64,000 nucleotides of DNA, from assembly GCA_938084565.1 (NCBI GenBank), contig CALKEU010000001.1, positions 202,131 through 266,130 of the forward strand. Reading direction: 5' to 3'. Source of the DNA: Candidatus Kapaibacterium sp. GTDB lineage: Bacteria > Bacteroidota > Ignavibacteria > Kapaibacteriales > HRBIN21. A model generated the notes under the pieces. The model was given only the letters and a program-made list of their open reading frames with translations, ran no database searches and was not told the origin of the DNA. Positions 11,928 to 56,468 of the stretch are shown piece after piece; position 1 is the stretch's first letter; each line of letters opens with the position of its first letter. The position numbers were made by a program, and so were the translations under genes.

Positions 11928-13145
11928 TCACCGATAGAGTAGATAACGCTGCCGCTTCATGCGGAACTCCCGTACCCCCCATTGCCCCCTCTGGGAGAGC
12001 CCCTCTCCGTGGCAGAGCGCCTGAGCAAAAGCACTGCCGCCCACAACTTTCTGCACCATATCCCACGCCTTCGGACTCAGGCGCTGGCATAGCTCGGGAT
12101 CGTAGCGCATAAGCGCTGCTGCAACAAGGGTAAAGGCTTCAAACAACCGCCCATCGTGGCGCGGCTCTGGCACGAAAAAGATCCCACGGCACTCCCGACG
12201 AGCATGCGGCCCACTCGACGGCACAAAACGCGTGGCTCCAACCCGTACCCCTAATTGGCGCAGCGTGTCTCGCAGCTGTTCCACCAGAGATTCAGCGGGC
12301 AGCTGCGGAGCACCGAGAAGTTGAAAGGGAGTCGGACCCCCAACACCGATGTTCCACAGCCCCATTTCACCAAAGATGCCCGTGATAATGGCGGCTCGGG
12401 CAGCTGTCGGAGTCGGTATGTTCGGCGAGGGAGGAAACCAGGGGAGTCCAGTCTCTTCCCATACCATCGTGCGACGCCACCCACGGAGAGGGACCACTGT
12501 GAGAGAACAGCGGCGGCCATCCTGACGGAGAGAGGGTAACCATCCCTCCTCATTGGCCATGAGGGCTAGCTCCCCAAGCGTGCATCCGTGCCGATATGGG
12601 ATTGGTAGCATCCCAACAAATGATCGCCACCCCGTGTCTACCACTGCCCCTTCCACGACCGTACCCCCTAGTGGGTTCGGGCGATCCAAAACATAGACGG
12701 GAACGCCCCGTTCGGCACAGGCAGCCATGACAGCCACAAGCGTACTCACGTACGTGTACGGCCGGATGCCGATATCCTGTAGCTCCACAACGACGGCATC
12801 CACCCCTTGGAAGAGCTCTTCTGTGGGATATCGACGTGGGCCGTACAGCGACAAAACTGGTATCCCGGCAATAGAATCATCCGGAACCGGCGTGCCTGCA
12901 GGTAGCGCCGCCCAAAAGCCATGCTCTGGCGCCCAAATAGCCACAATGCGGAAGTGTTCTCTGAGCAGCTCCACACTGAGACGCCCGTCCGGCAGGCGTG
13001 CTGCAGCATGGGTTACGATGGCCAGGCGCCTGCCCCTGAGGGAGTCACGGTAGAGCTCCACGAACCGCTCCACCCCGAGCTGCACGTCTGCGCCATAGCT
13101 GAGCCCCCCAACGACAGGTCCCAGGAATATCGCCCACCACATCAT
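11928..13145 (-). CDS. DUF1343 family protein (NamZ-like exo-beta-N-acetylmuramidase candidate)
   Basis: Signal peptide, then VVELQDIGIRPYTYVSTL and RPNPLGG segments resembling the DUF1343 family. Confidence 0.55.
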   Translation of the reverse strand: MMWWAIFLGPVVGGLSYGADVQLGVERFVELYRDSLRGRRLAIVTHAAARLPDGRLSVELLREHFRIVAIWAPEHGFWAALPAGTPVPDDSIAGIPVLSLYGPRRYPTEELFQGVDAVVVELQDIGIRPYTYVSTLVAVMAACAERGVPVYVLDRPNPLGGTVVEGAVVDTGWRSFVGMLPIPYRHGCTLGELALMANEEGWLPSLRQDGRRCSLTVVPLRGWRRTMVWEETGLPWFPPSPNIPTPTAARAAIITGIFGEMGLWNIGVGGPTPFQLLGAPQLPAESLVEQLRDTLRQLGVRVGATRFVPSSGPHARRECRGIFFVPEPRHDGRLFEAFTLVAAALMRYDPELCQRLSPKAWDMVQKVVGGSAFAQALCHGEGLSQRGQWGVREFRMKRQRYLLYR

Positions 13146-14017
13146 TGGGCCCGAGGATGGAAAGTGCGATGGACCTCCTGCAAGTAGAGCCGATCCACAT
13201 GCACATAGATTTGCGTGGTTGAAATGTTCGCATGCCCAAGCATCTCCTGCACTGCTCGCAGATCTGCTCCACCTTCGAGCAAATGCGTAGCGAAGCTATG
13301 GCGGAGTGTATGCGGATGGATAGCTCGCTGAATCCTGGCTCGCTGAGCCGCCCATTGGATGAGCTTCCATATGGCCATGCGCGAGAGGCGCCCACCGCGA
13401 ACGTTCAGAAAGAGAATATCTGTCGGACGCCGCTGCAGCAGCGGACGCGCTTGGGAACGGTACCGTTCCACCCACTCCAGTGCTACCTTCCCAATGGGGA
13501 CCAAACGCTCCCGCCCTCCTTTCCCCCGCACGCGCACAAGCTCTTCGGTCGTCAAAAGATCGCTAAGCCGAAGGTTGCAGAGTTCGGAAACCCGTAACCC
13601 ACAGCTGTACAGCATCTCCAGTATTGCCCGGTCGCGCAGTCCTCGCGGTGTGCTCTCATCCGGCTGCTGGAGAAGGCGTTCCACCTCAGCTATGCTCAGC
13701 ACCTCCGGCAGCGGACGCCGACGGCGCGGCAGCACGAGGAGCTCGGTCGGATCGCTCTCCAGTTGCTCTTCAAAGGCCAAAAAGCGGTAGAAAGCCCGGA
13801 GGGCCGCTACATACTGAGCTCGGGAAGCCACACTTAACCCTCGCTCGGCGAGCTCTTCGAGGAACTCTTCAACCTGCCGCATTGTGGCTTTGGCAGGATG
13901 GGATATCCCGCACCGATGCAGGAATTCCCGAAAGCAGTGGAGGTGATGTGTGTAAGCTTGTACGGTGTTCTCGGCCAACCCATGCTCGAAACGTAAGTGG
14001 TTAGCAAACTCCCGCAT
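13142..14017 (-). CDS. xerD: tyrosine site-specific recombinase XerC/XerD family
   Basis: Catalytic region RHSFATHLLEGGADLRAVQEMLGHANISTTQIYVHV. The ORF track starts at 14071 and overlaps the upstream gene by 44 nt. A start at MREFANHLRFEHGLAENT (14017) fits the Xer N-terminus and removes the overlap. Confidence 0.75.
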   Translation of the reverse strand: MREFANHLRFEHGLAENTVQAYTHHLHCFREFLHRCGISHPAKATMRQVEEFLEELAERGLSVASRAQYVAALRAFYRFLAFEEQLESDPTELLVLPRRRRPLPEVLSIAEVERLLQQPDESTPRGLRDRAILEMLYSCGLRVSELCNLRLSDLLTTEELVRVRGKGGRERLVPIGKVALEWVERYRSQARPLLQRRPTDILFLNVRGGRLSRMAIWKLIQWAAQRARIQRAIHPHTLRHSFATHLLEGGADLRAVQEMLGHANISTTQIYVHVDRLYLQEVHRTFHPRAQ

Positions 14018-14027
14018 CCATTGCGGC

Positions 14028-16232
14028 TCATCCTGATGCCTCTGCGCCAGCCGAGATCGGGCCATAGGCAACTCGCCGATGTTGAATTCCTACCATACCT
14101 TCCAGCAGTGCTTCACGGACGCGGGACAGCTCACGGAAGGTGAGAGGACACTCCTCCAGCTGCCCGTCCAGAATGCGTTCCCGCACTACCTCATCCAACG
14201 CAGCTGCCAAACGCTCGGGTTCATCGGCTGGGATCACATGAGTCAGTGCCTCGGCCGCATCGGCTAGCATGAGGATGGCTGCTTCCTTTGTCTGTGGCTT
14301 TGGCCCCGGATAGCGGAAATCCTGCTCCTGGGGCAGCGCTTCCTGACGAGCCCGCGCCTGCTCAAGAGCTTTCTGCCAAAAGACCCGAATGAGCATCGTG
14401 CCGTGGTGCTGTGGGATGAAATCGATTATCTGCTGCGGCAGCCCATAAGCCCGTGCCAGTTCGATACCCTCGCTGACATGCTCCCGGATGATGGCAGCGC
14501 TCTTCTTGGGAGGGAGCCGATCATGCTTGTTATCGAGCCCAATCTGGTTCTCGGCGAAATACTCCGGCTTTGTCAGCTTCCCGATATCGTGAAAGTACGC
14601 ACCGACACGGACCAAAAGGGTTCGAGCCCCGATGGCTCGGGCAGCGTGTTCGGCCAGGCGCGCAACCGTGAGGGAGTGCTGATACGTACCAGGCGCCTTG
14701 CGCTGGAGCTCCTCCAGAAGCGGATGCTCGAGCGAACTATACTCGAGCAGGCGCATATCGGTGACGATGTTGAAGACGCGCTCCAGGAAGAGCAAGATAC
14801 CGAACGTGCATGCAGGCGACAGCGCTGCATTGAGACCCACAAAGCCGCACTGCAGGGCAACTTCTTCAACGCTATGCCCATGGGCAACCCCAAAGACCAG
14901 AACAGCCGTTCCCATCCCCAGCAATGTGAAGAAAAACGAACGGAACAGCTGTCGGCTGCTCTCAAGGTCGCGCACCGTGTACGCAGCCAACATCCCTCCG
15001 AGCATGAGCGCCAAAGCCGTCGGATAGTCGCCCTGCCGCACTCCTGCTACGAGCAGAGCTGCCGTAACCGTTGTATAGAAGGCGGTCCGGGAATCCAAGA
15101 GAATTGCCACCACCATCGAGAAAACGGGGAGCACAATCAGATACTGCAGCGGCAACCGTGACGCAACAGCCTGGGAAGCCCAGGCCAGCGCTGCTATGCT
15201 GACCAGCCCCAGCGCAAGCCCAGCCAGTTGGAGATTATCACGAAAGATGCGCGGGCGCAAAAACCCAAGGTAGACGAAGAGCACCGAGCAGACGAGCGCG
15301 GCATGTCCGAAGCTTCCCATCAGAGTGGAGAAAGACACTCGTGCCTCTCGGTGCAGCAAACCAACGTTGACGTACGAGCGCAGCTTTGCACGGGTTGTAT
15401 CCGTCAGCGGCTCTCCTGGGGCAACGATGAGCTCGCCTGCGCGAACAATGCCCCATGTCCGTGGGACCGCCTGACGAGCGGTCCGGCGGAGCATCTCCGT
15501 CAGCTCTGCTTCGTAGAAGAGAGTAGGGCGTATCAGCCGCCGGGCAAGTTCAAACGCTATTGGCTGCTGCTCCGGCGCAATCTGCTGCCGGATGAGCGTG
15601 GCCAGCATCAGAAGCGCTTCCGCTGAATCCATCACCGCCTCCAGAGGCAGTACCGTCTCTACAACCGGGCTCGGACGAAGAGCAATCCGACTGCTCGAAA
15701 GCCCATTCTTGGGGACATTGAGAATATCGCCTCGGCGTACGAGCTCGCTGAGCACCGTTTCGAGCCCCTGTCGCAGGCGCTTGAGCTCTTCCGTACGCCA
15801 TACCGGCGGGACCTCTGTCCACATCTCTGCTATCTCAGGCGACAGCGGCAGCATCCCCTGCTCCAGGCTATCGAGGAGGCTGGAGAGTCGCTGCTCGAGC
15901 TCCTGCCTCTGATACGGCCTCCGGGAAAAAATCGGGAGAATGCCTTCAGCCGCTTGCTGTTGTTCCCGCTCGTATACCTCCGCTGGCTTCTGCACAACGA
16001 ACGTGTACTCTGCCACAATCGGAGGCCCCTGCCAGCGCTCGCCTGGAGCTGCCTTCAGCAGCCTCTGTTGTTGTGGGAGTAACCCCTCCACCCACCCCGG
16101 GAAGAAGAGTCCACAGAGGAGCACCGTACCGCCGAGAATTACCACCTTGAGCGATGCAGAGTACCGAATGCCCTCCGCTTCAGCGCTAGAGCGCAGACGT
16201 TGCTGCAGCCGCTCAAATAGCGTCGGACTCAT
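14028..16232 (-). CDS. 7TM receptor with intracellular HD phosphohydrolase (7TMR-HD, PgpH-like)
   Basis: N-terminal extracellular region, then multiple TM helices, then a C-terminal HD domain (YFHDIGKLTKPEYF). Confidence 0.75.
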   Translation of the reverse strand: MSPTLFERLQQRLRSSAEAEGIRYSASLKVVILGGTVLLCGLFFPGWVEGLLPQQQRLLKAAPGERWQGPPIVAEYTFVVQKPAEVYEREQQQAAEGILPIFSRRPYQRQELEQRLSSLLDSLEQGMLPLSPEIAEMWTEVPPVWRTEELKRLRQGLETVLSELVRRGDILNVPKNGLSSSRIALRPSPVVETVLPLEAVMDSAEALLMLATLIRQQIAPEQQPIAFELARRLIRPTLFYEAELTEMLRRTARQAVPRTWGIVRAGELIVAPGEPLTDTTRAKLRSYVNVGLLHREARVSFSTLMGSFGHAALVCSVLFVYLGFLRPRIFRDNLQLAGLALGLVSIAALAWASQAVASRLPLQYLIVLPVFSMVVAILLDSRTAFYTTVTAALLVAGVRQGDYPTALALMLGGMLAAYTVRDLESSRQLFRSFFFTLLGMGTAVLVFGVAHGHSVEEVALQCGFVGLNAALSPACTFGILLFLERVFNIVTDMRLLEYSSLEHPLLEELQRKAPGTYQHSLTVARLAEHAARAIGARTLLVRVGAYFHDIGKLTKPEYFAENQIGLDNKHDRLPPKKSAAIIREHVSEGIELARAYGLPQQIIDFIPQHHGTMLIRVFWQKALEQARARQEALPQEQDFRYPGPKPQTKEAAILMLADAAEALTHVIPADEPERLAAALDEVVRERILDGQLEECPLTFRELSRVREALLEGMVGIQHRRVAYGPISAGAEASG

Positions 16233-17571
16233 GCCTCTCTCCTGGCTCTACTTCTAGGACGCAGCCTCCTCCGCCTTCGTGCACGGCCTCATACAGCGCC
16301 TCCCACAACGTCCGCACCAGAGGGCCATAGGAGGCTTCCGGAACAAAGCAGCGTACGTACTCCCCTCCAGCAAATCGCACAGACACTCCCTTCTCGAGCA
16401 GACGTGCACACAACCGCACAAATTCGCCTCTGTGCGATGGTGCGGCAGAGAGCAGTGTTACCATACCCCCTTCCTCTACCGGCTCCAGAGCTGGGATATC
16501 GGAATTGGTCAGCATCCAGACGTACTCCCCGTCCTCCCACCGGGCAAAGACCGTACTACCATCGACCGGCTGCAGGCGTAACTCAGGAGGTATCACCGCC
16601 GATGGGGCCTTCCGCAACCAGACCTTTTCCCGACCCACAATGAGCGGGGGCAGCTGTCCCGGAACACTCGAGATATCGGTCGCCCCTGCTGTTGGAGCAA
16701 AGGCCGAACGGATACGGAGCCGCACCCCCCATCGCTCCGCTACCTCCAGCATCCGGGGGTAGAGTAAACGCAGCCCTGCTCGCCCAATATGGGCAGCCTG
16801 TCCGTACGACAGCTGCGGTACTAGCGCCGCATGAGGGACAATTGCAGGATCACACACCCGAATGCCGGCAACATCGGTCCAGAGATGGACTTCCGGGGCT
16901 CCCACCAGCGCGGCCAGGAGTACAGCCGTCAGCGAGGAACTCTCCTGCCCCATGGTCGTGATATCCCCCCGCACAGACCGAGCAACAAAGCCCTGAGTGA
17001 GCACAATGCTGCCAGCACGAAGCAGGGGGCAGAGACGTTCTTCAACCCTCCGGGCTGTTTCCTCAATGAGCGGCTGTGCCATACCATGGCGCGTGTCTGT
17101 GCAGAGCACTTCAGTGGCTTCGATTACCGTGATCGGGAAACCCCACCGGCGCAGGAAAGCCACTACCAATGCCAGAGCCCAGCTCTCCCCAAAGGAGCGC
17201 ACAAGATCGAGCGTCCGTGGGGTCAATTCCCCTGTAATAGCGATCCCGTGCACGTACTCCTCCAATTGACACGCAGTGTGCGAAAGTAATTTGCCTATGG
17301 CTTGCTGCCCGTCCGTATCTAAAAGCTGCGCTGCATATTCCCGGTGGTACGCGACAACACGGGCAACAGCTTCGAGCGCCCCCTCCAGCTGCCCCGCCTG
17401 CGCCATGCGGGCAATCGACTCAAGCTGGCGTGTCACATGTCCCAGAGCCGACACGACTACTACCAACGGAGCCGCCGCAGTGTACTCCCGAAGGCGCTCA
17501 GCCAGAGCCGTAAAACCCTTCGGCGTACGCAGTACAGCTCCCCCACATTTGAGTACCAGCGGCGCTGCCAT
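16213..17571 (-). CDS. aspartokinase-like amino-acid-kinase family protein with a degenerate nucleotide-binding motif
   Basis: AAK fold signatures (PLVLKCGGAVL, VVVVSALGHVTRQL) and ACT-like C-terminal segments. The canonical GRGGSD loop is replaced by TMGQESSSLTA. The ORF-track start at 17598 is a TTG inside the promoter motif, so I use the ATG at 17569-17571. Confidence 0.55.
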   Translation of the reverse strand: MAAPLVLKCGGAVLRTPKGFTALAERLREYTAAAPLVVVVSALGHVTRQLESIARMAQAGQLEGALEAVARVVAYHREYAAQLLDTDGQQAIGKLLSHTACQLEEYVHGIAITGELTPRTLDLVRSFGESWALALVVAFLRRWGFPITVIEATEVLCTDTRHGMAQPLIEETARRVEERLCPLLRAGSIVLTQGFVARSVRGDITTMGQESSSLTAVLLAALVGAPEVHLWTDVAGIRVCDPAIVPHAALVPQLSYGQAAHIGRAGLRLLYPRMLEVAERWGVRLRIRSAFAPTAGATDISSVPGQLPPLIVGREKVWLRKAPSAVIPPELRLQPVDGSTVFARWEDGEYVWMLTNSDIPALEPVEEGGMVTLLSAAPSHRGEFVRLCARLLEKGVSVRFAGGEYVRCFVPEASYGPLVRTLWEALYEAVHEGGGGCVLEVEPGERHESDAI

Positions 17572-17596
17572 AGAACTCTCCCGCAGGGTCGCAAAC

Positions 17597-17604
17597 AAAA
17601 TTAG
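17597..17604 (-). promoter_or_regulatory. Bacteroidetes-type -7 promoter element TAATTTTG for the aspartokinase-like gene
   Basis: Minus-strand CGCTAATTTTGTTTGC about 26 nt upstream of the ATG at 17571, in the 68-nt divergent intergenic region. Confidence 0.4.
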
Positions 17605-17665
17605 CGCCCCATCCCCGTTGCACCTTCCCGGCTAAACCAAGCCGTGCCTTGAGGGCTCTAAGCGC

Positions 17666-18073
17666 ATGAAGTCAATGTCGCACCGCTTGCAGAGGGCTGT
17701 AGCTATGTCAGTCATCCGTGGAGCTGCTGTGGCCGCATTGGCCTTCGCTGTATGCTTACCGCTCCGTGCACAAGAGTCCACCCATACCCCTGCCCCTCCG
17801 GAGCAGCGCTGGGAGCGCTGGCTGAACCATCTGCAGAAACATCTGGAGCTCACATCTCAACAGCGTGACCGTATCCGCACTCTCCTTCGCGAACGCTGGG
17901 AACAGCAACAGCGTGAACGTCGGCTCTTCCGTGAGCGCCTTCAGGAAATCCTCTCCCCTGAGCAGTGGCAGAAGTGGCAGCAGTTACGCCAGGAACGCCG
18001 TAAGCGCTGGCAGCAGTACTGGAAAGAACGGGGACCCCGCAGCGAGCGTGAAACCCCATATTACGAGAAGTAG
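17666..18073 (+). CDS. Spy/CpxP-family periplasmic LTXXQ-motif protein
   Basis: Signal peptide (AVAALAFAVCLPLRAQ), an LTSQQRDRI (LTXXQ) motif, and a highly charged helical repeat region (RERWEQQQRERRL...). Confidence 0.6.
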   Translation: MKSMSHRLQRAVAMSVIRGAAVAALAFAVCLPLRAQESTHTPAPPEQRWERWLNHLQKHLELTSQQRDRIRTLLRERWEQQQRERRLFRERLQEILSPEQWQKWQQLRQERRKRWQQYWKERGPRSERETPYYEK

Positions 18074-41883: not shown

Positions 41884-42573
41884 TTAGGGCCGCACCCATA
41901 GGAGAGGCCTCCACCGTCCCTCCTCCCAGATGAACCCTACGTATACCCCAGAGGCTCCCCGCTCAGGCACTACGTCCCCAGCCCAGCAGAGCCGTCCCGT
42001 GAGGTCGTAGAGCACAATACGCCGGGCCAATGGGAGCCCTTCTCGACCTTCGGGGACCGATACTGGCCCAAAGCGGTACCAGACCGTGAGAACAAACTCT
42101 TCGAGGAACTCGTTGGTAATGACCCCCTGCTGTTGCTCTCCAAACGGAATCCGCACGAGCGTCCCGGTAATGCGATCACTCACTACGGCCGAGTCAACGT
42201 GCTCGGGCAAGGGGTGGTTCCACTGGAGCACGATTGTGCGTCCTCGCCCGCGTTGGACTACGAAACGGTATGCCACCGCGAAGGTATCCTGTCTCCGCAA
42301 TGGGCGAAAATCTACGTAGCTCCACTTCCACTCACCCTCAATGGAGTCGTAAAAGCGTAAGGCGGCATGGAAGATGTCCTGGGGCGGGTGGAAAGGTGGG
42401 ATTTCCCGCTCACCGAGTGCGGTATCGATCCCGTCGGTAGCTCGCTCATCTACCCCAACCACAAGTCGGATCCGCTCTCCTAATTCGTTCCCGACAGTAA
42501 AAGGGAGTTCGACGCGAAGCTGCGCCGCCGCAGTGCACACAATGCTAAGACTGATCACCGTATGCCGCCACAT
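41884..42573 (-). CDS. small T9SS-CTD secreted protein, paralogue of an internal module of the 1027-aa neighbour
   Basis: Signal peptide MWRHTVISLSIVCTAAAQ. It shares the motif VGVDERATDGIDTALGE with GLGIRATDGVDTLFGE in the 1027-aa protein. The C-terminus GVYVGFIWEEGRWRPLLWVRP is CTD-like. Confidence 0.55.
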   Translation of the reverse strand: MWRHTVISLSIVCTAAAQLRVELPFTVGNELGERIRLVVGVDERATDGIDTALGEREIPPFHPPQDIFHAALRFYDSIEGEWKWSYVDFRPLRRQDTFAVAYRFVVQRGRGRTIVLQWNHPLPEHVDSAVVSDRITGTLVRIPFGEQQQGVITNEFLEEFVLTVWYRFGPVSVPEGREGLPLARRIVLYDLTGRLCWAGDVVPERGASGVYVGFIWEEGRWRPLLWVRP

Positions 42574-42658
42574 TCCACCCACAGGTTGCCCACGGACAAC
42601 AAAACTGGGTGGTAGCCCTAGCGGACCACCACCCAGCACGTGAAGGCTTCAGCGTGTT

Positions 42659-45600
42659 TTAGCGGACCACTGAAACGGGCACCACAGTTCTTCGCTCGCC
42701 CGCTGCTGCCCGCAACAGATACCGTCCGCTCGACAGAGCTTCTACTGGGAGCAAGAATGTGTGCGAACCAGCGGCGAGCTCACCCTCGTACACTCGCATC
42801 ACCTCTTCACCCATCAGGTTGTAAAGTGTGAGCACAACCGGGGCTGCCTCTGGTACAACGAGTGTGACCGTTGCGCGCTCGAGCACCGGCTGCGGCCTCA
42901 CTTCAACCCGAAATTCAGTGCCTGCAGGAACACTCAGCAGCTGGACTGCCGTTACATTTGGATCTGTGATCTGCACCTGGTTCTGCCCACTGAGCGTTCC
43001 CCACACACGTCCGGAGGCATCAACAACGGTATACTCCGTTGCGCCACTCCCTAGGTGCAGAGTCACGGGGTACTGCACACCCTGGAATCGGATCACCGGC
43101 GAGGCGGCATCCTCCACGTAGGTCCCACTCCCGAAACGGACATCGAAGATTCCCTGTGGAGGCAGCGGTGGCAACTCGAACCGCTCCCGATCGATCGGCT
43201 GCTGACTGAGGTAGAGAATCGCCTCCCTCCCAGCCGCATCGCGCACGGCCACTGGGGCACTCTGCTGCACCACGTACTCCCGGTACTCGTCCCGATAGGC
43301 CGTCGCACGCGGCGTGCCAGGAGCCTCCAGCTTGAGGTAGCCCCTGCCCCGAATCTTGATCCAATACCCTAAGCCGGGGGTCAACTCTGAGACTTCCATG
43401 AAACCACGATCCGGCTCGTATTTGTACACACCCCCGACCCGCTGTGGTAGTGGCTCAGCACCATAGTTCTCGAACTGAATCCGCTCAATGCTTACAGGAA
43501 CCGATAGCCCACCGATAGTATTCCACCCATCGTAGAGCAGCACATTGTCGTTCCGGTCTATCCGAAGCAGACGAACACCCGCAATCTGGCGATCCACGGA
43601 ATCGCTATACTTGACGTAGTAGCCGTAGCCCACCTGGAGGTTTTCCGAGGCCTGATACTGGTTCTGCGAGAACCAGAAGGGGATATTGATAGCCCGCGGA
43701 TAGACCATCCGCCAGTGAGGATTCGCCGGCCGCACTGGCAGCGAGAGCAAGTTCCACCCTTTTCGGATGACAGGATACTGGACGACGAGCGGATACGTGT
43801 ACTCGATGACAAACGAGCGGATCCGGGCATCCGTGATCGTATAGGACATCCGCGTACCCCCTGCCGGGGTTGCCTGCCGCATATCGACACCAAAGATCAA
43901 GCCGTTGAGTGTATCTCGCAAGAAGAGGCGCGCCCCTGCTGGAAAATCTGTCGTATCCCACGTCAGTACCACGGGGTAATTCGGAGCCCCACCGGCATCG
44001 AAGCGGCACAGAAAGACCACGGTTGAATCGGAAAACACATTGCGAATGTCACGCGAAGCATAGATCCCTACCAAGTCCCGCAATCCATACGGCGCAGTAC
44101 CTGGCGGGACATTGGCTACCCCGTCGAGATACCAGCGCGCATAGAAGCTCCCCGCCACTGGCGGATTATCATACACCGTCTCTCCAAAGAGAGTGTCGAC
44201 TCCGTCTGTTGCGCGAATCCCCAACCCAAAGACCAGTGTTGCTGACTGTGGAATTGCAGCCGAGTTGCTCACCGTGATCCGGATTCCCCGGCCCAGGACC
44301 GCTAGATTACGGGGATCATTGTTCGGCTCCACAGGGTTCCGCACGTAGATAAATGTTACCCGCAAGCGCACCGGTGATACCGACGCAGAGAGGCTGCGGA
44401 ATGTAATGTAGCCAACGTAAATACCTGCCGCATCTATGTTCTGGGGCAACTCCTGCGGATCACAGAGAATTCGGAAATTCTGAGGACGTGACGGGGATTG
44501 TGGGTTGTTTTGGATGTCTTGGAGAATGGTCTCACCGAGCGTCCGATCGATGTAATCAATCACTCCCCGGCGTGTGATAGTCGGGATGGGGTTTCGGTCG
44601 CCGGGGCCAGCAGCAAAGGTCTGAAACTTAAGCCACCGTGCGTTAGACTCCACCACGATATCCGTCAATCGCGTACCCTCCACCTCGTTAGTTACCACTA
44701 ATTCCCGCCGTCCGAAGAAGACCCCTCGCGTCCACGAAGCCGAATCCAACACAATGGGATGAATGACTTCCCACTCATCGCCAGAGAGAGAAACTTGTCG
44801 AACAACTGCGTCAACCCCTATCCGTGGTTCAAAGCCCATCTGCGGAACACTCGTGACAAGGACGTAGATCATGCCCGGCATACTCGGATAGAGATTGGCA
44901 ATTGGCAGCAGACCGCGATTGTCAACCCCCTCTAATCCCTCATACGACACATTCCCGGAAGCCCCACCGGTACGATATGTTACAAAGTCCCGATACCGTG
45001 ATCCCACTGAATTAGCTGGGAAGGGTTCCGCAGGAAAAACGCTCAGGTTGAGATCGTTGTACTTCAGCGTGTCGTTGGAGAGTATCAACCGTGCAACCGA
45101 ACCCTCAGGCCCCGTTACCCGGAACCGTAAGTACACAACCGGAACATACTGCCGGTTATCACACTGAATAGTTGGATCCCACGGATCCTGTCCCAGTCCA
45201 GCAGGGCTCGGAGGCAGTGGTTTTGCAGAGCTAGCAACAATGCGGATTCGACGGGGATCGAAGACTGGGGGAACGCTCCCCAGGTTGTGCCATGCAACGA
45301 GTGCTCCTAACATATCCTGAGATGTGATCGCAACATCATCGAAGGCAAACGTGAAATCCTTTGCTAAAACGCTATCACCCGCTGGACTGACCTTTTGGAG
45401 CCCCAGAAACTCCAAGAAGCGCCCATCGTACTTGAGTTTGAATTCGAAACTGTAGATCGGCCACACCTGTCCCCACACAGGGTGGGTTGTAGGAACCCAA
45501 CAGTTTCGGATGTAGACTGGAACCAACAACTCCCGTGGCTGCCGTGGATCTGCTTGTTGAGGTACCACGATAAAGCCCGCAGGATAGACTTGCGCATCGT

Positions 45601-45742
45601 ACCCTGGGCCGCTGCCTGTCAAACTAAGCACCGGCAGTTTCACGTCGACCGTCTGTCCCCACAGCAGGGGGCTTCCGGCGAGGATAATACCTACAGCCAC
45701 TGTCCACAGAGATACCCACTGTCGCATTGCCTCTCTCCTCAC
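42659..45742 (-). CDS. large T9SS-secreted protein with N-terminal cohesin-like module
   Basis: Signal peptide, then a cohesin-like beta-sandwich pattern (LLVPVYIRN...IYSFEFKLKYDGRFLEFLGLQKVSPAGDSV). The C-terminus VLTLYNLMGEEVMRVYEGELAAGSHTFLLPVEALSSGRYLLRAAAGERRTVVPVSVVR is a T9SS CTD. Confidence 0.6.
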   Translation of the reverse strand: MRREAMRQWVSLWTVAVGIILAGSPLLWGQTVDVKLPVLSLTGSGPGYDAQVYPAGFIVVPQQADPRQPRELLVPVYIRNCWVPTTHPVWGQVWPIYSFEFKLKYDGRFLEFLGLQKVSPAGDSVLAKDFTFAFDDVAITSQDMLGALVAWHNLGSVPPVFDPRRIRIVASSAKPLPPSPAGLGQDPWDPTIQCDNRQYVPVVYLRFRVTGPEGSVARLILSNDTLKYNDLNLSVFPAEPFPANSVGSRYRDFVTYRTGGASGNVSYEGLEGVDNRGLLPIANLYPSMPGMIYVLVTSVPQMGFEPRIGVDAVVRQVSLSGDEWEVIHPIVLDSASWTRGVFFGRRELVVTNEVEGTRLTDIVVESNARWLKFQTFAAGPGDRNPIPTITRRGVIDYIDRTLGETILQDIQNNPQSPSRPQNFRILCDPQELPQNIDAAGIYVGYITFRSLSASVSPVRLRVTFIYVRNPVEPNNDPRNLAVLGRGIRITVSNSAAIPQSATLVFGLGIRATDGVDTLFGETVYDNPPVAGSFYARWYLDGVANVPPGTAPYGLRDLVGIYASRDIRNVFSDSTVVFLCRFDAGGAPNYPVVLTWDTTDFPAGARLFLRDTLNGLIFGVDMRQATPAGGTRMSYTITDARIRSFVIEYTYPLVVQYPVIRKGWNLLSLPVRPANPHWRMVYPRAINIPFWFSQNQYQASENLQVGYGYYVKYSDSVDRQIAGVRLLRIDRNDNVLLYDGWNTIGGLSVPVSIERIQFENYGAEPLPQRVGGVYKYEPDRGFMEVSELTPGLGYWIKIRGRGYLKLEAPGTPRATAYRDEYREYVVQQSAPVAVRDAAGREAILYLSQQPIDRERFELPPLPPQGIFDVRFGSGTYVEDAASPVIRFQGVQYPVTLHLGSGATEYTVVDASGRVWGTLSGQNQVQITDPNVTAVQLLSVPAGTEFRVEVRPQPVLERATVTLVVPEAAPVVLTLYNLMGEEVMRVYEGELAAGSHTFLLPVEALSSGRYLLRAAAGERRTVVPVSVVR

Positions 45743-45761
45743 GGAGCAAATTCAACAGACT

Positions 45762-46901
45762 TCATTCCACAATGAAGGCCACGGGGAGCTGTGCTCCCCC
45801 GATTCGTTGCCATCGTCCAACGTATATACCTGTAGGTAGCCCTTGAAGGGACACCTCGAACGGCTTCCCTTCGGCATGTACAGATCGCAGGAGCCTACCT
45901 AGGACATCGTAGAGCTCCAGCCGTTCGCCCGGCTCTAGGTACAACAGGCCAGAAGGATACACCATCACCCTCTGGCAACGCTCGCTGACGGCTGAAGGCT
46001 GCGATGGCGCAGCCATCACTACCAAACTATCTCCTATCCAACGAGTAAGGCAAGCACACGGATCCAGGGGATAAGACAGAAGACGAAGGGTGACCGTATC
46101 CGCCCACTGTATGCGGGCAGACAATTCCACGATAAGCTCGGACCTCTCCCGCTGGGAAGTCCATTTTATGCTCAGTGTGTCGCCACTGCGCTCCCACGTT
46201 TGCAACTCAACACCTTCGCCTACAGCAATATTCTCTACCTGTAGCCACGACGGCAGACCCGTTATGACTGTTGCCACCGAACGGAGTTCCAGAGCTGGAG
46301 GACAGCCCACTTGCACTACCCACAAACACGAGGTATCCGTCCCCACTAGGTTGCACTCCCGCGTCAGACTTTGCGTCCACAGAGTACGGTCAGGCGTGTC
46401 AACGATACGGGCATAGACGATTACAGGCGTTGTATCAACCTGCACCACCCGCCTCCGTTCGAACTCTTCGTTGAATTCCACATACTTCAGTTGAATGACA
46501 GCCGTATCAGGACACTCCCGACGATAATCTCCAAGGAAGGCCACCAACGGCTTCGCCCCAGAGATTCGTCGTGTGAGCGTGAATGCATATGCCCGAATCT
46601 CGCCATACAGCGCACTAAAGGCTCGCTGTTCCATTCCTTCTGCCAACGTACCGCTGACTAGCATCGTATGGAAGGCAAACTTCTCTGGATTGTACTGTAT
46701 GGCAAGATTGAAGCCCATCAAGCTGTCCGTTGGCTGTACTGGACTGATCTCAACGATCAAGATACACTCGCGTCTCCCGCACACATCTACCGTATCCCAG
46801 ACCCGCAGGGCAAGCCGTGCTGTCGTCTGGGCTATGAGCTGCCCCATGCCGCACAGAGCCATCACTATCCATGATGGTAAGCATGCCCTGCAGGACATCA
46901 T
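45762..46901 (-). CDS. T9SS-secreted protein with N-terminal cohesin-like module
   Basis: ALRVWDTVDVCGRRECILIVEISPVQPTDSLMGFNLAIQYNPEKFAF follows the cohesin pattern V.V.....G..V.V.I....V.....G..F.L...YDP..L. The C-terminal CTD is LELYDVLGRLLRSVHAEGKPFEVSLQGLPTGIYVGRW. Confidence 0.6.
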   Translation of the reverse strand: MMSCRACLPSWIVMALCGMGQLIAQTTARLALRVWDTVDVCGRRECILIVEISPVQPTDSLMGFNLAIQYNPEKFAFHTMLVSGTLAEGMEQRAFSALYGEIRAYAFTLTRRISGAKPLVAFLGDYRRECPDTAVIQLKYVEFNEEFERRRVVQVDTTPVIVYARIVDTPDRTLWTQSLTRECNLVGTDTSCLWVVQVGCPPALELRSVATVITGLPSWLQVENIAVGEGVELQTWERSGDTLSIKWTSQRERSELIVELSARIQWADTVTLRLLSYPLDPCACLTRWIGDSLVVMAAPSQPSAVSERCQRVMVYPSGLLYLEPGERLELYDVLGRLLRSVHAEGKPFEVSLQGLPTGIYVGRWQRIGGAQLPVAFIVE

Positions 46902-46907
46902 ACCCCA

Positions 46908-48788
46908 TTAACGCAGCACCACGATTGGTTCGAGCTCTCGGATACCTGTTGGACCTTCAATCCGGCACATATACATGCCCGGGCTGACCCGCTCGCCGAG
47001 CCCGTTCGTCCCATCCCACTCTACCTCGTAGGAACCGCTCGAATACTCCGCATCAGCAAGTGTCCGTACATAGCGGCCCATGGCGTCATAGAGGAGCACC
47101 CGATATCGCCCCGCCTCCGGTACATGGAGTCGGATGGCTGTCCGATCAATAACGGGGTTGGGGGCAACATGGCCTACCGTCGTCGGAGCTGCTGTGACAG
47201 CCAGCGGCACTACGAGCTCAGGCAGCTCTTCGTCATTCAAGCGGACATTGCTTACCCGCAGCTGAGCATCTTCTACGCGCAGCGTCACATACAGTATCGG
47301 CTCCCCCGCCTCACACTCTATCACACCCGCAATCGCCATACGCCCAGCGTCGTAGGCAACCGTCAGCCTGTCTGCAAAGCGCGGTGCAATCTCAACTCCA
47401 CTGATGACCCCATTGAATTGTACTCGAATACCCAGTGCTCCTGCCCAGGCTCCGTTGAGGGCGATGGGGAAGCGATATACTCCAGGAGCACTACTGTGCG
47501 GTTGCGCAATGTGGAGATTCGAGGCAATACCTGCAGCTGCTGCCCCCCGACCGTATGGTGGGAGTACTGTCAAATCCAGCAGCCACGGCAGATACGGCAC
47601 ACGGCCCGCCATGTAGAGCATGATGATGGCTGCATCATACTCCGTAGCCTCGAAAAAGAGAATAGGATCACCTCCAACATAGGGGAGCGAGTTATCCTGT
47701 GGGAGGTCCTGCCAGTAGTAGAGCGATCGTGTCGGTATAGCGCGTCGATGGTAGGCTGTATCAGCTGTATTGTTCCAGTTGCGTGTAGAGTAGTAGTAGC
47801 GCCCGTTGTGGTTGACGTCTCCATGGTATGCCTGGCGCCCTTTGAGGCTATCGAGACGCCGATCTGTTGCTACAGAGCGCAGGATGAGCATTACATCGTT
47901 CACTGTCACAAACCGGTCTTGTCCCATCCCGGTGTGCTTTCCCACTTGGGAGAAGTCTACATCTCCGTCGCCCCACCCTTCCAGGAAGAGCCGAGGGATG
48001 GCATTGAAGCGAATAACTGTATCACTTCCCCCCGAAGGTTGCCATGTGCTACTCAATACCGTAGAGGTAAGTGCCTGATTGACATCGCCAGTGAAGACCA
48101 AGCCATTCAGATAGTCACCAAATCCCCCCTTGATACCAATCGCTGCACCCTGTACCTGAACTGGTCCCCCCGAGGCCGTCAAACCGTAAGCAAACTCAAT
48201 ATCACCCTGGAAATTCCCCGGCCGCGAAGATTCATACAGCCACACTTGGAAACTGGCGATACTGGATGGCAACGACGGGTTGTTAATGTTCAAATCCCTC
48301 CACTCCACCACGAACGCCCGATTCGGGGCTGATCCCACCACTTTGTACGAGATCCGCGAAGGAACGTACCCCGGTTGAGTCGTCCGATAGTAATGGTCAC
48401 CCCAGAAGGGGGCAATGACGTTGAAAGGTTCAGAATTGACGAAGAGCCGCCCCGGAATATTCCCGCCCGTTAACGGAGGAGTCTCCCCGGTACGTAGCAA
48501 CAAGACGAATCCATTGACAGAGATTGCTAGTCTGCTGTACCGATAGCCCTGATACTCGAAGAGGAAAGGGAGTGCCACAATGGCGTAGCCGTCATTGTGA
48601 TCAGGGTTCCCGGTTGCTGGATCTACGAACTGGTCCGCATCCAGCACCGTTGCTCCCGCCAGCAAGGTAAAGGGTTTTCCTCCGACTTTGACAGCAGGCT
48701 GGAACTCGGCATAAACCTGGGATCTTGCGGCAATTGCACCGCTGAGCAGTAACGCCACAACACCCCCGATCAGCGTCAGCATTCTCAT
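46908..48788 (-). CDS. T9SS-secreted protein with dockerin-like Ca-binding loop motifs
   Basis: Signal peptide MRMLTLIGGVVALLLSGAIAARSQ (ATG at 48786-48788 preceded by GAGGAGA). It has two dockerin-like segments, GDGDVDFSQVG...VTVNDVMLILRSVA and GDVNHNGRYYYS...TADTAYHRRAI. The C-terminal CTD is YRVLLYDAMGRYVRTL...GMYMCRIEGPTGIRELEPIVVLR. Confidence 0.6.
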   Translation of the reverse strand: MRMLTLIGGVVALLLSGAIAARSQVYAEFQPAVKVGGKPFTLLAGATVLDADQFVDPATGNPDHNDGYAIVALPFLFEYQGYRYSRLAISVNGFVLLLRTGETPPLTGGNIPGRLFVNSEPFNVIAPFWGDHYYRTTQPGYVPSRISYKVVGSAPNRAFVVEWRDLNINNPSLPSSIASFQVWLYESSRPGNFQGDIEFAYGLTASGGPVQVQGAAIGIKGGFGDYLNGLVFTGDVNQALTSTVLSSTWQPSGGSDTVIRFNAIPRLFLEGWGDGDVDFSQVGKHTGMGQDRFVTVNDVMLILRSVATDRRLDSLKGRQAYHGDVNHNGRYYYSTRNWNNTADTAYHRRAIPTRSLYYWQDLPQDNSLPYVGGDPILFFEATEYDAAIIMLYMAGRVPYLPWLLDLTVLPPYGRGAAAAGIASNLHIAQPHSSAPGVYRFPIALNGAWAGALGIRVQFNGVISGVEIAPRFADRLTVAYDAGRMAIAGVIECEAGEPILYVTLRVEDAQLRVSNVRLNDEELPELVVPLAVTAAPTTVGHVAPNPVIDRTAIRLHVPEAGRYRVLLYDAMGRYVRTLADAEYSSGSYEVEWDGTNGLGERVSPGMYMCRIEGPTGIRELEPIVVLR

Positions 48789-48838
48789 CGTCTCCTCATC
48801 CGCGTGTGAGACCTGTTTGTTCTTGTCACACAAGGAGA

Positions 48839-48872
48839 GGGAGCTTTCCTGCCTGTCAGGCAGGAAGCTCCC
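48839..48872 (-). terminator. intergenic stem-loop (14-bp stem, 5-nt loop) 10 nt downstream of the 2208-aa gene stop; candidate intrinsic terminator/attenuator or RNA-stabilising hairpin
   Basis: GGGAGCTTTCCTGCC-TGTCA-GGCAGGAAGCTCCC forms a near-perfect inverted repeat with one bulged T. On the minus-strand transcript it is followed by CUCUCCUUGUGUG, which is only moderately U-rich. Confidence 0.45.
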
Positions 48873-48881
48873 CCACTCTTA

Positions 48882-51800
48882 TTACCGCACTAGGACCATT
48901 GGCTGGACGAGCACCACGTCGCCAGCAGTGATCCGGTAGTAGTACACACCACTGGGGACTTCTACACCGTTAGCGCTTCTTCCGTTCCACGGTACAATGT
49001 ACTCGTTAGCCGGGTAGAAGCCCTCCAGCAGCGTAGCAACCTGCGTACCGAGAGCATCGTACACTTCGAGCCGTATAGTAGCTGGCTCCGTCAGGCGGAA
49101 GCGAATCTGAGTTGTCTGCTCAAATGGATTAGGAGTATTTCCGAGCAGCTGCACTGGACCAGCCGCAGCAGCCACCGGCTCGGGCACATCGCTAATGAAG
49201 TCATACACGATCACAAAGTTCGTGACGGCGTCGGTGTAAATGACAACCGAAAGCGAGTCGCCATTCCGCTCTAGGGTCACTGTGGGCACCGAACGTCCTT
49301 CACCCGTGCGCATATTGAAGCTAAAGATGTTCCCGTTGGAGGCGCCGTCACGGATATACCACGTCGACCCAGCAGGGTTACGCGCGGCATCGTTCCGGTC
49401 AGGAACATCTTGAGCACTCCACGTGATGCGCACAGGATACGCATCAGAGGCATTGCCGGTGACACTTCCCGCCTGGAAGCGCCCTTTGTAGATCGATTGC
49501 CCTTCAACACCAGCAACCGCCCGCGGAAAGATATTCCGCACCGTTCCATTCGTAGAAGCAATACTCCACCGAGCGTCGAAGACGTCGTTGGGTGGGATCG
49601 GCGGCAGCTCGTACTCGCAGTAGTTGGAATCCAACTTCCCGACGCCACCACGGTTCGGATCATCACCGGTGGTTGCCAGCGGCGCTGTTCCCCATTCGAG
49701 TACCTGGAAGGCCCCGAAGCGATTGCTAATCCGCATTGGGACAATGAAGTCTGTCGGATCGGACACGTTCAGCTTGTAGGAGATCTCGTGTTGTGCTCCC
49801 TGCCGATCCACGACTCGAACGCGGACGGTAACCTTGCCATCGGGCCCTGGGGTGGCATTCAGAGCTGCCGTGCTAATCAAAACCTTGACTGTATCGGAGG
49901 ACTGGGGACCGCTAATTGTAGCCGGGCTAACCTGGAAGCCCGCAGGCTCGACCACCTCGATTGTCAGCTGCTCGAGGGCATCCGGCGGCTCCCGACGCAG
50001 GAGATCACGGTCGATCACCAGAATGCTATCCACATAGGGTTTCCCAAGCTCAACACATCTTACTGCCGGCAGCTGTGCCAGCCGTGGCGGATGGTTTACT
50101 GCCCGCACATTGAGGTCGAGCACCTTCACGTGTGTCAGTCCGTACTCGTCCGTAACCAGAACGGTTACCTTCTCTCGACGCGGCGCATCGTAGACCCCTG
50201 GAGTGCCAAAGAGAAGCCCGCTGACCGGATCGATCTGGAGCCACCGCGGGGTGGTCTTCTTGTCGCGCAGATCCCACGCACCCGCCTCGGGGAAGCATGG
50301 ATCGCGTGGGACAAAATCACGTGGATCGCCGGGATAAATCAGCTCAAATTGATGTGCCTGCCCAAAGTTCGGATCGTACACGACTATGCGACGACTCGAA
50401 TCCAGCAGCGTCGGATTGTAGTCCTGGTCCTCTATGGCATCCGGCAGCGTAGAGGTGAGGATGGTGGGAGCTACGTTGACGAGAACTCGCCGCGTTAGAT
50501 AGTTGACTCCACCATGGCCATCATTCACTACGATGGAGACAACCGTGTCGGTGTTGAGTGCCCCATGGTGTTGCATTGGGGGTGTCAGCAGTTGCCATGC
50601 AGTGGCAGAATCAATCCTCACATTGAGCTGCCCACGGAGGCTGAAGTCGATCGCTAATGGATCGGGCTGCCCACTGTTATCGTAGCGCCGTAGGTACTGG
50701 TTGCTCATCCACACCGGACGTACCTGCGTTGCAGGCTCAACGACTGTATCTGGCGGCACATCCCGCAGACTAATCGAGGCAAAGCCATAGGTTGTGCGCC
50801 CATAGCGGAAGTCCCATCCACGAGCACCAGCGTCAGCATCTTCGAGCTCGTCATCGGTATCGATGTCAACTTTAAAGCGGAGGCTATCAGTCAAGTTCGC
50901 AAGCCAAACACCGTTTCGTTCGCAGGCTACGTTGAAGCCTGTAAACTGCGGCGTACTGTCGATGACGAAGATCCGGAACTGGTACGTCACCGTCGTCGCC
51001 CCCGTGTTACCATAGTCCACGGTATCCTGCTGCAAGAACCGAGCATTGCTGCCGTCGTACGCTTGCGCATTGAAGTACGGCGGATAGAGGTAGATGTACT
51101 TTGCGATGACCTCCTCACTCAGCCCAGCAGCCTTCAGGGAGTCAACGGTTCGGGCGCTGGGCGGGAAGTTGCGGACAGCCACCGTGACGATTTCTCCACC
51201 GGGAACCACAAACGGGTTTGTCGGTCGGCCCTTGAGCACAACGTAGCCTCGCGCTCCATAGTACGGACCAAACGTTGCCGGGAGCGTATCGGCCTGGAGC
51301 CAGTAGGAAAGCCCCGAACCAGGTGCAACACTCCAGAAGTACGCAAGCTGCGGATACCGATCGGGGAACATGACCGACCGCGGGTCATAGAAGAGGTTCG
51401 GGTCTACCGCAGTAATGGTAAAGATGGAATCCCGCCCTGGCCCCGTCGGCTGACGCGGATAGCTTACATCCTCAGTCAGGAAGATCATATTCCGCAACTC
51501 CGGTGGCGTGATATTCTCCAACGCCACCTTGTTCCCCGTGAACACTGGCGGGTCAACTGTTGCTCCTACCTCAAAGATGAGTGCTCCATTGATTGCATCC
51601 GCAACCGTCCCCTGCCACAGAACTGTACGGGAAACAACGGCAACGACATCACCGACTCGTACCGGAAGCGCATTGTACCGTTCGCCGGCAAATACTGTAA
51701 CCTTCTGAGGGCTAATTGCCCCATCGGTGGGGAGAATACGATTGACATACCCAAAGCCGGGGCCCCCCAACTCATTGACAAAGCCCTCATATTTCCGCCC

Positions 51801-55466: not shown

Positions 55467-55537
55467 GATTCCTCCACCACCTAGAGACCACTTGTCAGAA
55501 GAGTGCATGAGTTCACCACAGCTTGGACGAACATATA

Positions 55538-56263: not shown

Positions 56264-56285
56264 GCCTGCCTATCCCTGACCCTTG

Positions 56286-56359
56286 TGCGCCCGGAGGGGC
56301 TCGAACCCCCAACCTTTGGAACCGGAATCCAACGCTCTATCCAGTTGAGCTACGGGCGC
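56286..56359 (-). tRNA. tRNA-Arg (anticodon CCG)
   Basis: Minus-strand GCGCCCGTAGCTCAACTGGATAGAGCGTTGGATTCCGGTTCCAAAGGTTGGGGGTTCGAGCCCCTCCGGGCGCA folds as a 7-bp acceptor stem, D-arm GCTC/GAGC, anticodon stem TTGGA/TCCAA with loop TTCCGGT, and a T-arm GGGGG-TTCGAGC-CCCCT. CCA is not encoded. Confidence 0.85.
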
Positions 56360-56379
56360 AGCGCGCTCCGGCAGCAGTG

Positions 56380-56387
56380 CAAAATTA
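56380..56387 (-). promoter_or_regulatory. Bacteroidetes-type -7 promoter element TAATTTTG upstream of tRNA-Arg
   Basis: Minus-strand TACGTAATTTTGCACTGC about 20 nt upstream of the mature tRNA 5' end. Confidence 0.45.
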
Positions 56388-56468
56388 CGTACTCTCCCCC
56401 TCCCTTCGGCGGGGACAGCTATCCACATGTGTGAGCTAGCTGTCACAGTGTGAGCCCGAGATGCTACA

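Follow-up and report, generated by a model that had tools for sequence, protein, structure and literature searches.

In a 64,000-nucleotide stretch of the Candidatus Kapaibacterium sp. genome (contig CALKEU010000001.1, positions 202,131 to 266,130; hereafter the window), a minus-strand gene at 16213..17571 encodes a 452-residue aspartokinase-like protein whose active-site loop reads TTMGQESSSLTA in place of the canonical TTLGRGGSDYTA. Judged from alignments, the changes that distinguish it from aspartokinases (AKs) are the replacement of R198 by Gln and of D202 by Ser (numbering of Escherichia coli AKIII), plus several invariants of the nucleotide site and the ACT loop. Since the Arg and the Asp of a normal aspartate kinase are lost, the protein probably has a different job. 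We give a probability of about 0.5 to the reading that it is a re-tooled paralogue of LysC, which would bind ATP and an amino-acid-like ligand with altered specificity, would lack classical feedback and would not serve as the housekeeping aspartokinase. The protein belongs to a family, here called GxESS(N), that is confined to Kapabacteria, Ignavibacteria and 'Chlorobiota' metagenome-assembled genomes (MAGs) and, as scored for the window protein, is covered by no curated model at its cut-off. We did not find an aspartokinase-like family of these taxa described in the literature searched.

Fold and active site

The coding sequence opens at the ATG at 17571, giving the N-terminus MAAPLVLKCGGAVL, as supported by the list of open reading frames (ORFs), a Pfam AA_kinase match (9e-29) and the starts of homologues. 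A longer version beginning with TTG at 17598 was dropped as unsupported because homologues start at the ATG position. Residues 1-300 (16672..17571) make up the amino-acid-kinase (AAK) catalytic domain with an aspartokinase-type helical insertion, Pfam and NCBIfam coverage extending over residues ~4-301 only. Pfam AA_kinase (PF00696) matches residues 5-289 at 101.3 bits against a gathering threshold of 24.9, and an AAK alpha/beta sandwich fold is predicted with confidence. The initial annotation had described the gene as a non-standard lysC, and the profile scores bear this out: no NCBIfam aspartokinase model reaches its cut-off on the protein, and all matches are limited to the first ~300 residues. 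TIGR00657 scores 178.8 bits against a cut-off of 208.7, in the kinase domain only, and the equivalog models fall far below theirs, the lysine-sensitive AKIII model reaching 163.6 against 455.

The C-terminal part had also been called ACT-like. No ACT hidden Markov model (HMM) of Pfam matches the protein, and the likeness holds in the predicted structure only, over residues 305-432 (16276..16659, minus strand). This region evolves fast; within the long-form clade (P0002-P0010) it is 32-64% identical, whereas the kinase domain is 53-81% identical. Short forms of the family, 375-390 residues long, also exist, and no domain fusions were found in its longer members.

The position of the loop was examined by phmmer alignment to PDB sequences, with a profile of the clade, and residue by residue against 2j0w and 3c1m. 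The segment TTMGQESSSLTA (16924..16959, minus strand; the motif coordinates in the window were confirmed by translation) falls opposite TTLGRGGSDYSA of the Methanocaldococcus jannaschii AK and TTLGRGGSDYTA of E. coli AKIII, unshifted in both the phmmer and the clade-profile alignments. The Gly-rich loop is therefore absent rather than displaced, and the altered loop reported for this 452-residue AAK protein is real, the profile alignment recovering no shifted copy. In the loop, Q209, E210, S211, S212 and S213 of the window protein correspond to R198, G199, G200, S201 and D202 of AKIII; elsewhere, K8, A42, T47, R48, E129, F195 and R268 correspond to K8, A40, T45, N46, E119, F184 and K257. The phosphate-binding motif K8-C-G10-G11 (17539..17550, minus strand) is the counterpart of KFGG (K8-G11) in AKIII.

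We then compared 161 sequences of the family with 119 of a sister group and 20 other canonical AKs, in an alignment that included E. coli LysC from NC_000913.3 and that fixed the correspondences given above. K8, G10 and G11 are present in 159 of 164 family sequences, the remaining five being gapped there, and in the canonical AKs as well. At the K257 position, where the window protein has R268, the family has Lys in 144 of 164 members and Arg in 13. The invariant residues of the family are K8, G10, G11, S41, A42, D122, G128, E129, G194, G208, E210, S212, G236, P242 and G266, and Asp222 (of TDV) and the DP motif are invariant or nearly so over more than 150 divergent family clusters.

The Asp202 position is Asp in all canonical and sister sequences and Asn in 134 of 164 family members. 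It is S213 in the window protein and Ser, Ala or Met within the window's own clade, several members having Ala or Met. The residue equivalent to Asp202 reportedly acts as an organiser of the catalytic lysines. The Arg198 position, which is Arg in 19 of 19 canonical and all ~120 sister sequences compared, is Q209 in the window protein and varies in the family (Ile in 46, Lys in 32, Phe in 18, Arg in 16, and others). In E. coli LysC, Glu119 forms a salt bridge with the amino group of aspartate and Arg198 one with its alpha-carboxylate, and A40, T45, E119, F184 and S201 are likewise among the substrate contacts (PMC5481828). The counterparts of these five (A42, T47, E129, F195 and S212) are all conserved, so that Arg198 is the sole substrate contact lost.

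Beyond the loop, the residues conserved in both comparison groups and lost in the family are S13, S122, G186, R198, D202, T228, E247, E250, A256, V258, H260, P266, G286 and the ACT-loop glycine (G393 of E. coli). At several of these positions the family has conserved residues of its own (L14, L214, L267, L269, Y271 and M274), which points to remodelling rather than decay.

The GxESS(N) family and its relation to LysC

A word-indexed search yielded 15 relatives without ACT matches in Pfam; they come from bacterium HR21 and from MAGs of Kapabacteria and Chlorobiota. In an exhaustive profile search, each of the best 150 cluster representatives (50% identity) scored above 270 bits, with lengths of 315-526 residues, mostly 370-470; at this identity the family numbers more than 150 clusters. 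We define it by the loop TTMGxESS(N/S/A/D)LTA, by KFGG(A/S)V, by a usual Arg after SA..T, by G(L)K(L)(L/I)Y P M and by having no ACT HMM match. All of these features are present in the window protein, which is the top match of the family profile. The loop occurs in 164 of 180 aligned proteins, and when each GTDB species was scanned by one genome, the pattern TTMGxESS[NSA][LF] turned up in 188 genomes; of these, 80 were listed, nearly all of them under the labels of Kapabacteria, Ignavibacteria, Chlorobiota or Bacteroidota MAGs, a few being clearly mislabelled.

Several taxonomic labels among the loci collected look wrong. Many of loci L015-L089 carry the title 'uncultured Hyphomicrobiales', and several whose gene content is typical of Ignavibacteria or Kapabacteria are recorded as Hyphomicrobiales, Patescibacteria or Didemnitutus. 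The same appears true of contig CAMCXP010000110.1, labelled Melioribacter roseus P3M-2 (53% GC; the genome of the species has 41%, PMC3534657), and of contig DYLM01000047.1, labelled Chloroherpeton thalassium (31.5% GC). Both were considered as links to cultured genomes and rejected, because their GC content does not fit the named species. The proteome tables of M. roseus list two ThrA-type AKs and asd, none of which is connectable to a family member.

Annotation pipelines disagree on what these proteins are. Three members annotated by PGAP bear the name 'hypothetical protein', whereas JGI or Prokka-style annotation says 'aspartate kinase'. As a consequence, metabolic reconstructions of Kapabacteria and Ignavibacteria, groups often discussed as amino-acid auxotrophs, may miscount the family as the entry step to lysine, threonine and methionine.

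The first round of matches held intermediates between the family and canonical enzymes, namely P0018 (TTMGRESSD, with ACT_9) and P0021, P0022 and P0024 (TTLGREGSD). Searching with P0018 gave 120 proteins of ~466 residues with AA_kinase and ACT_9 domains, of which 115 have TTMGRESSD, nearly all KFGGTS and all T-N. Where NCBI gives a name, it is 'aspartate kinase' from Ignavibacteriae, Ignavibacteriales or Bacteroidota. These proteins match TIGR00657 from end to end at ~340 bits, as opposed to the window protein's partial match, and the equivalog nearest to them is lysine-sensitive aspartokinase 3 (NF006570). The initial annotation had treated loss of the Gly-rich loop as the diagnostic feature. 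That claim does not hold, because the change from Gly-Gly to Glu-Ser is also carried by those 115 sequence-canonical Ignavibacteria-type AKs.

This Ignavibacteria-type AK (P0018/P0422) is of the same lineage and architecture as the GxESS(N) family and adjoins it in a neighbour-joining (NJ) tree of kinase domains. The two have in common TTMG, Glu at G199, Ser-Ser, ELTPRT(L/M)D, TQGF and WTDV. The Ignavibacteria-type AK, however, keeps R198, D202, KFGGTS, T-N, EAxEL..FGAKVLHP and an ACT_9 domain that Pfam detects, whereas the counterparts in the window protein are Q, S, KCGGAV, T-R and AGLRLLYP, with no ACT match. The Bacteroidota-like short AKs (P0021/P0022/P0024, 414-420 residues) hold an intermediate place in the tree. 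Like the family they have Glu at G199, a similar length and no recorded Pfam ACT match; unlike it, they retain both R198 and D202 and exceed the TIGR00657 cut-off (248.6 bits for P0024). Identity to E. coli LysC (2J0W/2J0X) and the M. jannaschii AK (3C1M/2HMF) is only 22-25%, and the window protein differs from both in the replacement of R198 and D202, the loss of the ACT effector-loop glycine and the absence of pathway context. On three contigs of Ignavibacteria type, an ORF of 41-44 residues lies ~120-140 bp upstream of the TTMGRESSD aspartate kinase gene (L094:754-879, L095:733-867 and L096:728-862), with no Rfam match at these places; the ORF is a possible attenuator or leader peptide.

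The kinase-domain tree forms a ladder from GRGGSD through GRESSD/GREGSD, G[KRS]ESSD and G[KR]ESSN to GxESSN, with the window's own clade, GQESS[S/A/M], embedded in its most derived part. From this ladder and the sister group we conclude that the exchange of Gly-Gly for Glu-Ser characterises a lineage whose enzymes are otherwise canonical; the family looks like a paralogous offshoot nested inside the LysC-type lineage. AAK and AK paralogues have elsewhere gone regulatory or into side pathways. The AAK domain of N-acetylglutamate synthase is degenerate and regulatory and has lost the catalytic lysines, which the GxESS(N) family keeps; the ectoine-linked Ask_Ect is an AK paralogue recruited to a side pathway, with a canonical active site and a place in the pathway cluster, and the family has neither.

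Possible functions of the family

Based on these observations, the subfamily would have arisen from an LysC/AKIII-type aspartokinase of the Ignavibacteria-Kapabacteria radiation. It has kept the aspartokinase fold (as predicted), the phosphoryl-transfer lysines, the glycine loop, the nucleotide-anchoring TDV and DP and five of the six residues that touch aspartate in E. coli LysC. What it has lost is the arginine that clamps the alpha-carboxylate of aspartate, together with the Asp202 equivalent as organiser of the lysines. Its nucleotide pocket has been partly rebuilt with conserved residues of the family's own, and its ACT regulatory module seems to have decayed. Such a protein would still bind ATP and a small amino-group-bearing acid, as a kinase of altered substrate specificity freed of classical Lys/Thr feedback, and the housekeeping AK role in lysine, threonine and methionine supply would lie with a separate canonical AK in the window genome. 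Several points weigh against this reading. The retention of five of the six aspartate contacts and of both catalytic lysines would allow for residual or re-engineered aspartokinase activity, and JGI pipelines label family members 'aspartate kinase'. The Asp202 position is unconstrained in the window clade, which fits loss of catalysis equally with altered catalysis. The NJ tree is distance-based and rough, and it carries no support values. No single genome was shown to have both a family member and a canonical AK, and when the four assemblies with sister-type AKs (JACRMQ01, CAZFXS01, JAGVIE01 and CAZAFL01) were compared with family-bearing assemblies by whole-genome-shotgun prefix, there was no overlap.

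A stronger form of the proposal is that GxESS(N) constitutes a new enzyme family of the AAK superfamily, a LysC-derived kinase whose substrate would be not free L-aspartate but another acid bearing an amino group, or a sensor of such an acid; we regard this as possible, with the odds somewhat against it. If true, it would imply an unrecognised housekeeping reaction across Ignavibacteria and Kapabacteria. A new substrate would add to the small set of AAK-fold carboxylate and phosphonate kinases, and would make the series RGGSD to RESSD to KESSN to xESSN a natural experiment in the re-tooling of an aspartokinase active site.

That the protein is instead the organism's working aspartokinase, sole or for the lysine branch, with an atypical site in which a residue such as R48 holds the alpha-carboxylate of aspartate, seems to us unlikely. 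It would accord with descent from the LysC-type lineage, with conservation across the family of the equivalents of E119, T45, A40, F184, S201, K8 and K257, and with the R48 position, which is Arg or Lys in about three quarters of the family and Asn or Asp in canonical AKs. A charge swap in which R48 replaces R198 nevertheless gained partial support only, as neither position 48 nor position 209 is basic in 29 of 161 members. Loss of the Asp202 equivalent (Ala or Met in several clade members) and of canonical nucleotide-site invariants also argues against it, as do scores under all curated AK cut-offs and the fact that asd, dap and thr are never adjacent in the loci analysed. The genomes bear on the question in both directions. 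No canonical AK was demonstrated for the window genome, and Ignavibacterium album, which is without lysC, thrA, asd and dapABD (Liu et al. 2012, PMC3362086), does not occur among the 80 listed of the 188 genomes, a pattern compatible with co-loss. On the other hand, the sequence-canonical sister type is common in the same classes as the family, and one related MAG has three COG0527 genes. This MAG, MS-B_bin-24 of Ca. Thermonerobacter (Kapabacteria lineage), carries a family member (L062), and three transcribed COG0527 genes are listed for Ca. Thermonerobacter together with asd, dapA, dapB, dapF and lysA (Thiel et al. 2019, Table S1). The COG0527 gene on contig-26 is probably the family member. 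A search for canonical AKs in Kapabacteria, with a profile of the canonical matches of the first search, returned mainly Acidobacteriota-type AKs and one Gemmatimonadota-labelled match and was uninformative. Were the protein a working aspartokinase, Arg198 and Asp202, believed to be essential, would be dispensable.

Also unlikely, in our judgement, is a non-catalytic pseudo-enzyme, in which the AK fold would bind nucleotide and/or amino acid as a sensor or regulatory partner. Its case draws on the lost and, in the window clade, unconstrained (S/A/M) Asp202 equivalent, on the loss of S13, E247, E250 and H260, on the decaying C-terminal domain and the existence of short forms, and on evolution faster than that of the neighbouring enzymes: the protein is 64% identical where its neighbours are 71-84% identical (L010), and 48% where they are 54-67% (L007). 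Against it stand the near-invariance of the Lys8, Gly10-Gly11 and Lys257 equivalents and of TDV and DP, the replacement of lost residues by family-specific conserved ones, not at random, and the lack of a conserved partner gene among 87 loci. The initial annotation had proposed a non-canonical or pseudo-kinase member. The protein is indeed non-canonical; the pseudo-kinase part is not established, because the equivalents of Lys8, Gly10-Gly11, Ser-Ala, Thr45, Glu119, Asp222 (TDV) and Lys257 are conserved. Set against the retained phosphoryl-transfer residues, the loss is confined to the counterpart of Asp202. A decaying pseudogene, or an artefact of annotation or assembly, is refuted by the conservation data, and we give it practically no weight. 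Apart from the somewhat faster evolution nothing specific speaks for it, whereas the reading frame is unbroken in all relatives, an identical copy of the 452-residue protein is present on several independent public assemblies, synteny is kept, the motif set is strongly conserved over hundreds of genomes and the structure prediction is confident.

Gene neighbourhood and other features of the window

Genomic context for the window organism comprised the 64 kb and 10-kb flanks. No aspartate-pathway genes were found among the ORFs of the window checked with Pfam, and with HMMs of the family and of canonical AKs the ORF at 16213..17571 was the only match in the window. Likewise, none of 89 loci has a second AK gene, and in 87 loci the neighbour clusters that are conserved include neither asd, hom, thr nor dap genes. 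The divergent intergenic region of 94 bp (17572..17665) is without a riboswitch, since a scan of the sequence upstream of the gene for a lysine riboswitch or leader gave no Rfam match at gathering thresholds.

Downstream of the aspartokinase-like gene, on the same strand, lies a gene for a 7TMR-HD (PgpH-like) membrane phosphohydrolase (14028..16232), followed by a XerD-like gene (13142-14071), a NamZ gene (11928-13145) and rplS, as assigned from gene calls and Pfam on identical contigs. This order is kept in the long-form Kapabacteria clade down to 47% identity, including relatives L004, L005, L007 and L008 (47-64% identical). The PgpH-XerD-NamZ order is missing from both short-form loci examined (L006 and L009) and present in 9 of the 87 loci, across which no neighbour is conserved family-wide. 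The aspartokinase-like gene and the PgpH-like start overlap by 20 nt in the window (16213-16232), whereas L004, L005, L007 and L008 have a gap of 26-57 nt; any translational coupling would therefore be lineage-specific.

The initial annotation also pointed to a divergently arranged Spy/CpxP-like gene. The gene is present (17666..18073, plus strand) and encodes a small protein with LTxxQ motifs, its match to Metal_resist (PF13801, E 6.7e-4) lying below the cut-off. It is kept among close relatives only: the ORF lies upstream in L001, L004, L005 and L008 but not in L007, where an ABC ATPase sits instead, and other loci have a different context again.

Short-form genes have neighbours of their own, a rpmE/rpsR pair and a small ORF of 76 residues. 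Directly downstream of family genes in 21 of 87 loci, on the same strand, is a protein of 74-82 residues (MKPVHDKV..GGCWATVRV..FDIKVAEYE), for example L050:11145-11375, L056:11149-11367, L065:11133-11348 and L009:5812-6039, plus 17 further loci. In the loci inspected (such as L009 and L067) it stands beside short-form genes; it belongs to no Pfam family and is absent from the window. The protein may act as a partner to the short forms, or make up for the C-terminal part that they have lost. In 14 loci, two ribosomal proteins are encoded divergently upstream of short-form genes (L050:9163-9733, L056, L058, L065 and about 10 others): an L31 that lacks the CxxC zinc motifs, and an S18 whose N-terminus is extended. 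The pair resembles zinc-independent ribosomal paralogue pairs.

Elsewhere in the window, the minus strand at 41884-55508 holds a run of large genes in which Pfam detects little or nothing. The ORFs of 251, 1027 and 379 residues have no Pfam match, one of 641 residues has a C-terminal FlgD_ig domain alone, and one of 2208 residues has Chlam_PMP repeats, He_PIG and a C-terminal FlgD_ig; these genes may encode secreted or cell-surface proteins. The single tRNA gene of the window is at 56286-56359 on the minus strand (Rfam RF00005, 65.7 bits), inside the listed ORF 56270-56734, which is therefore probably no gene.

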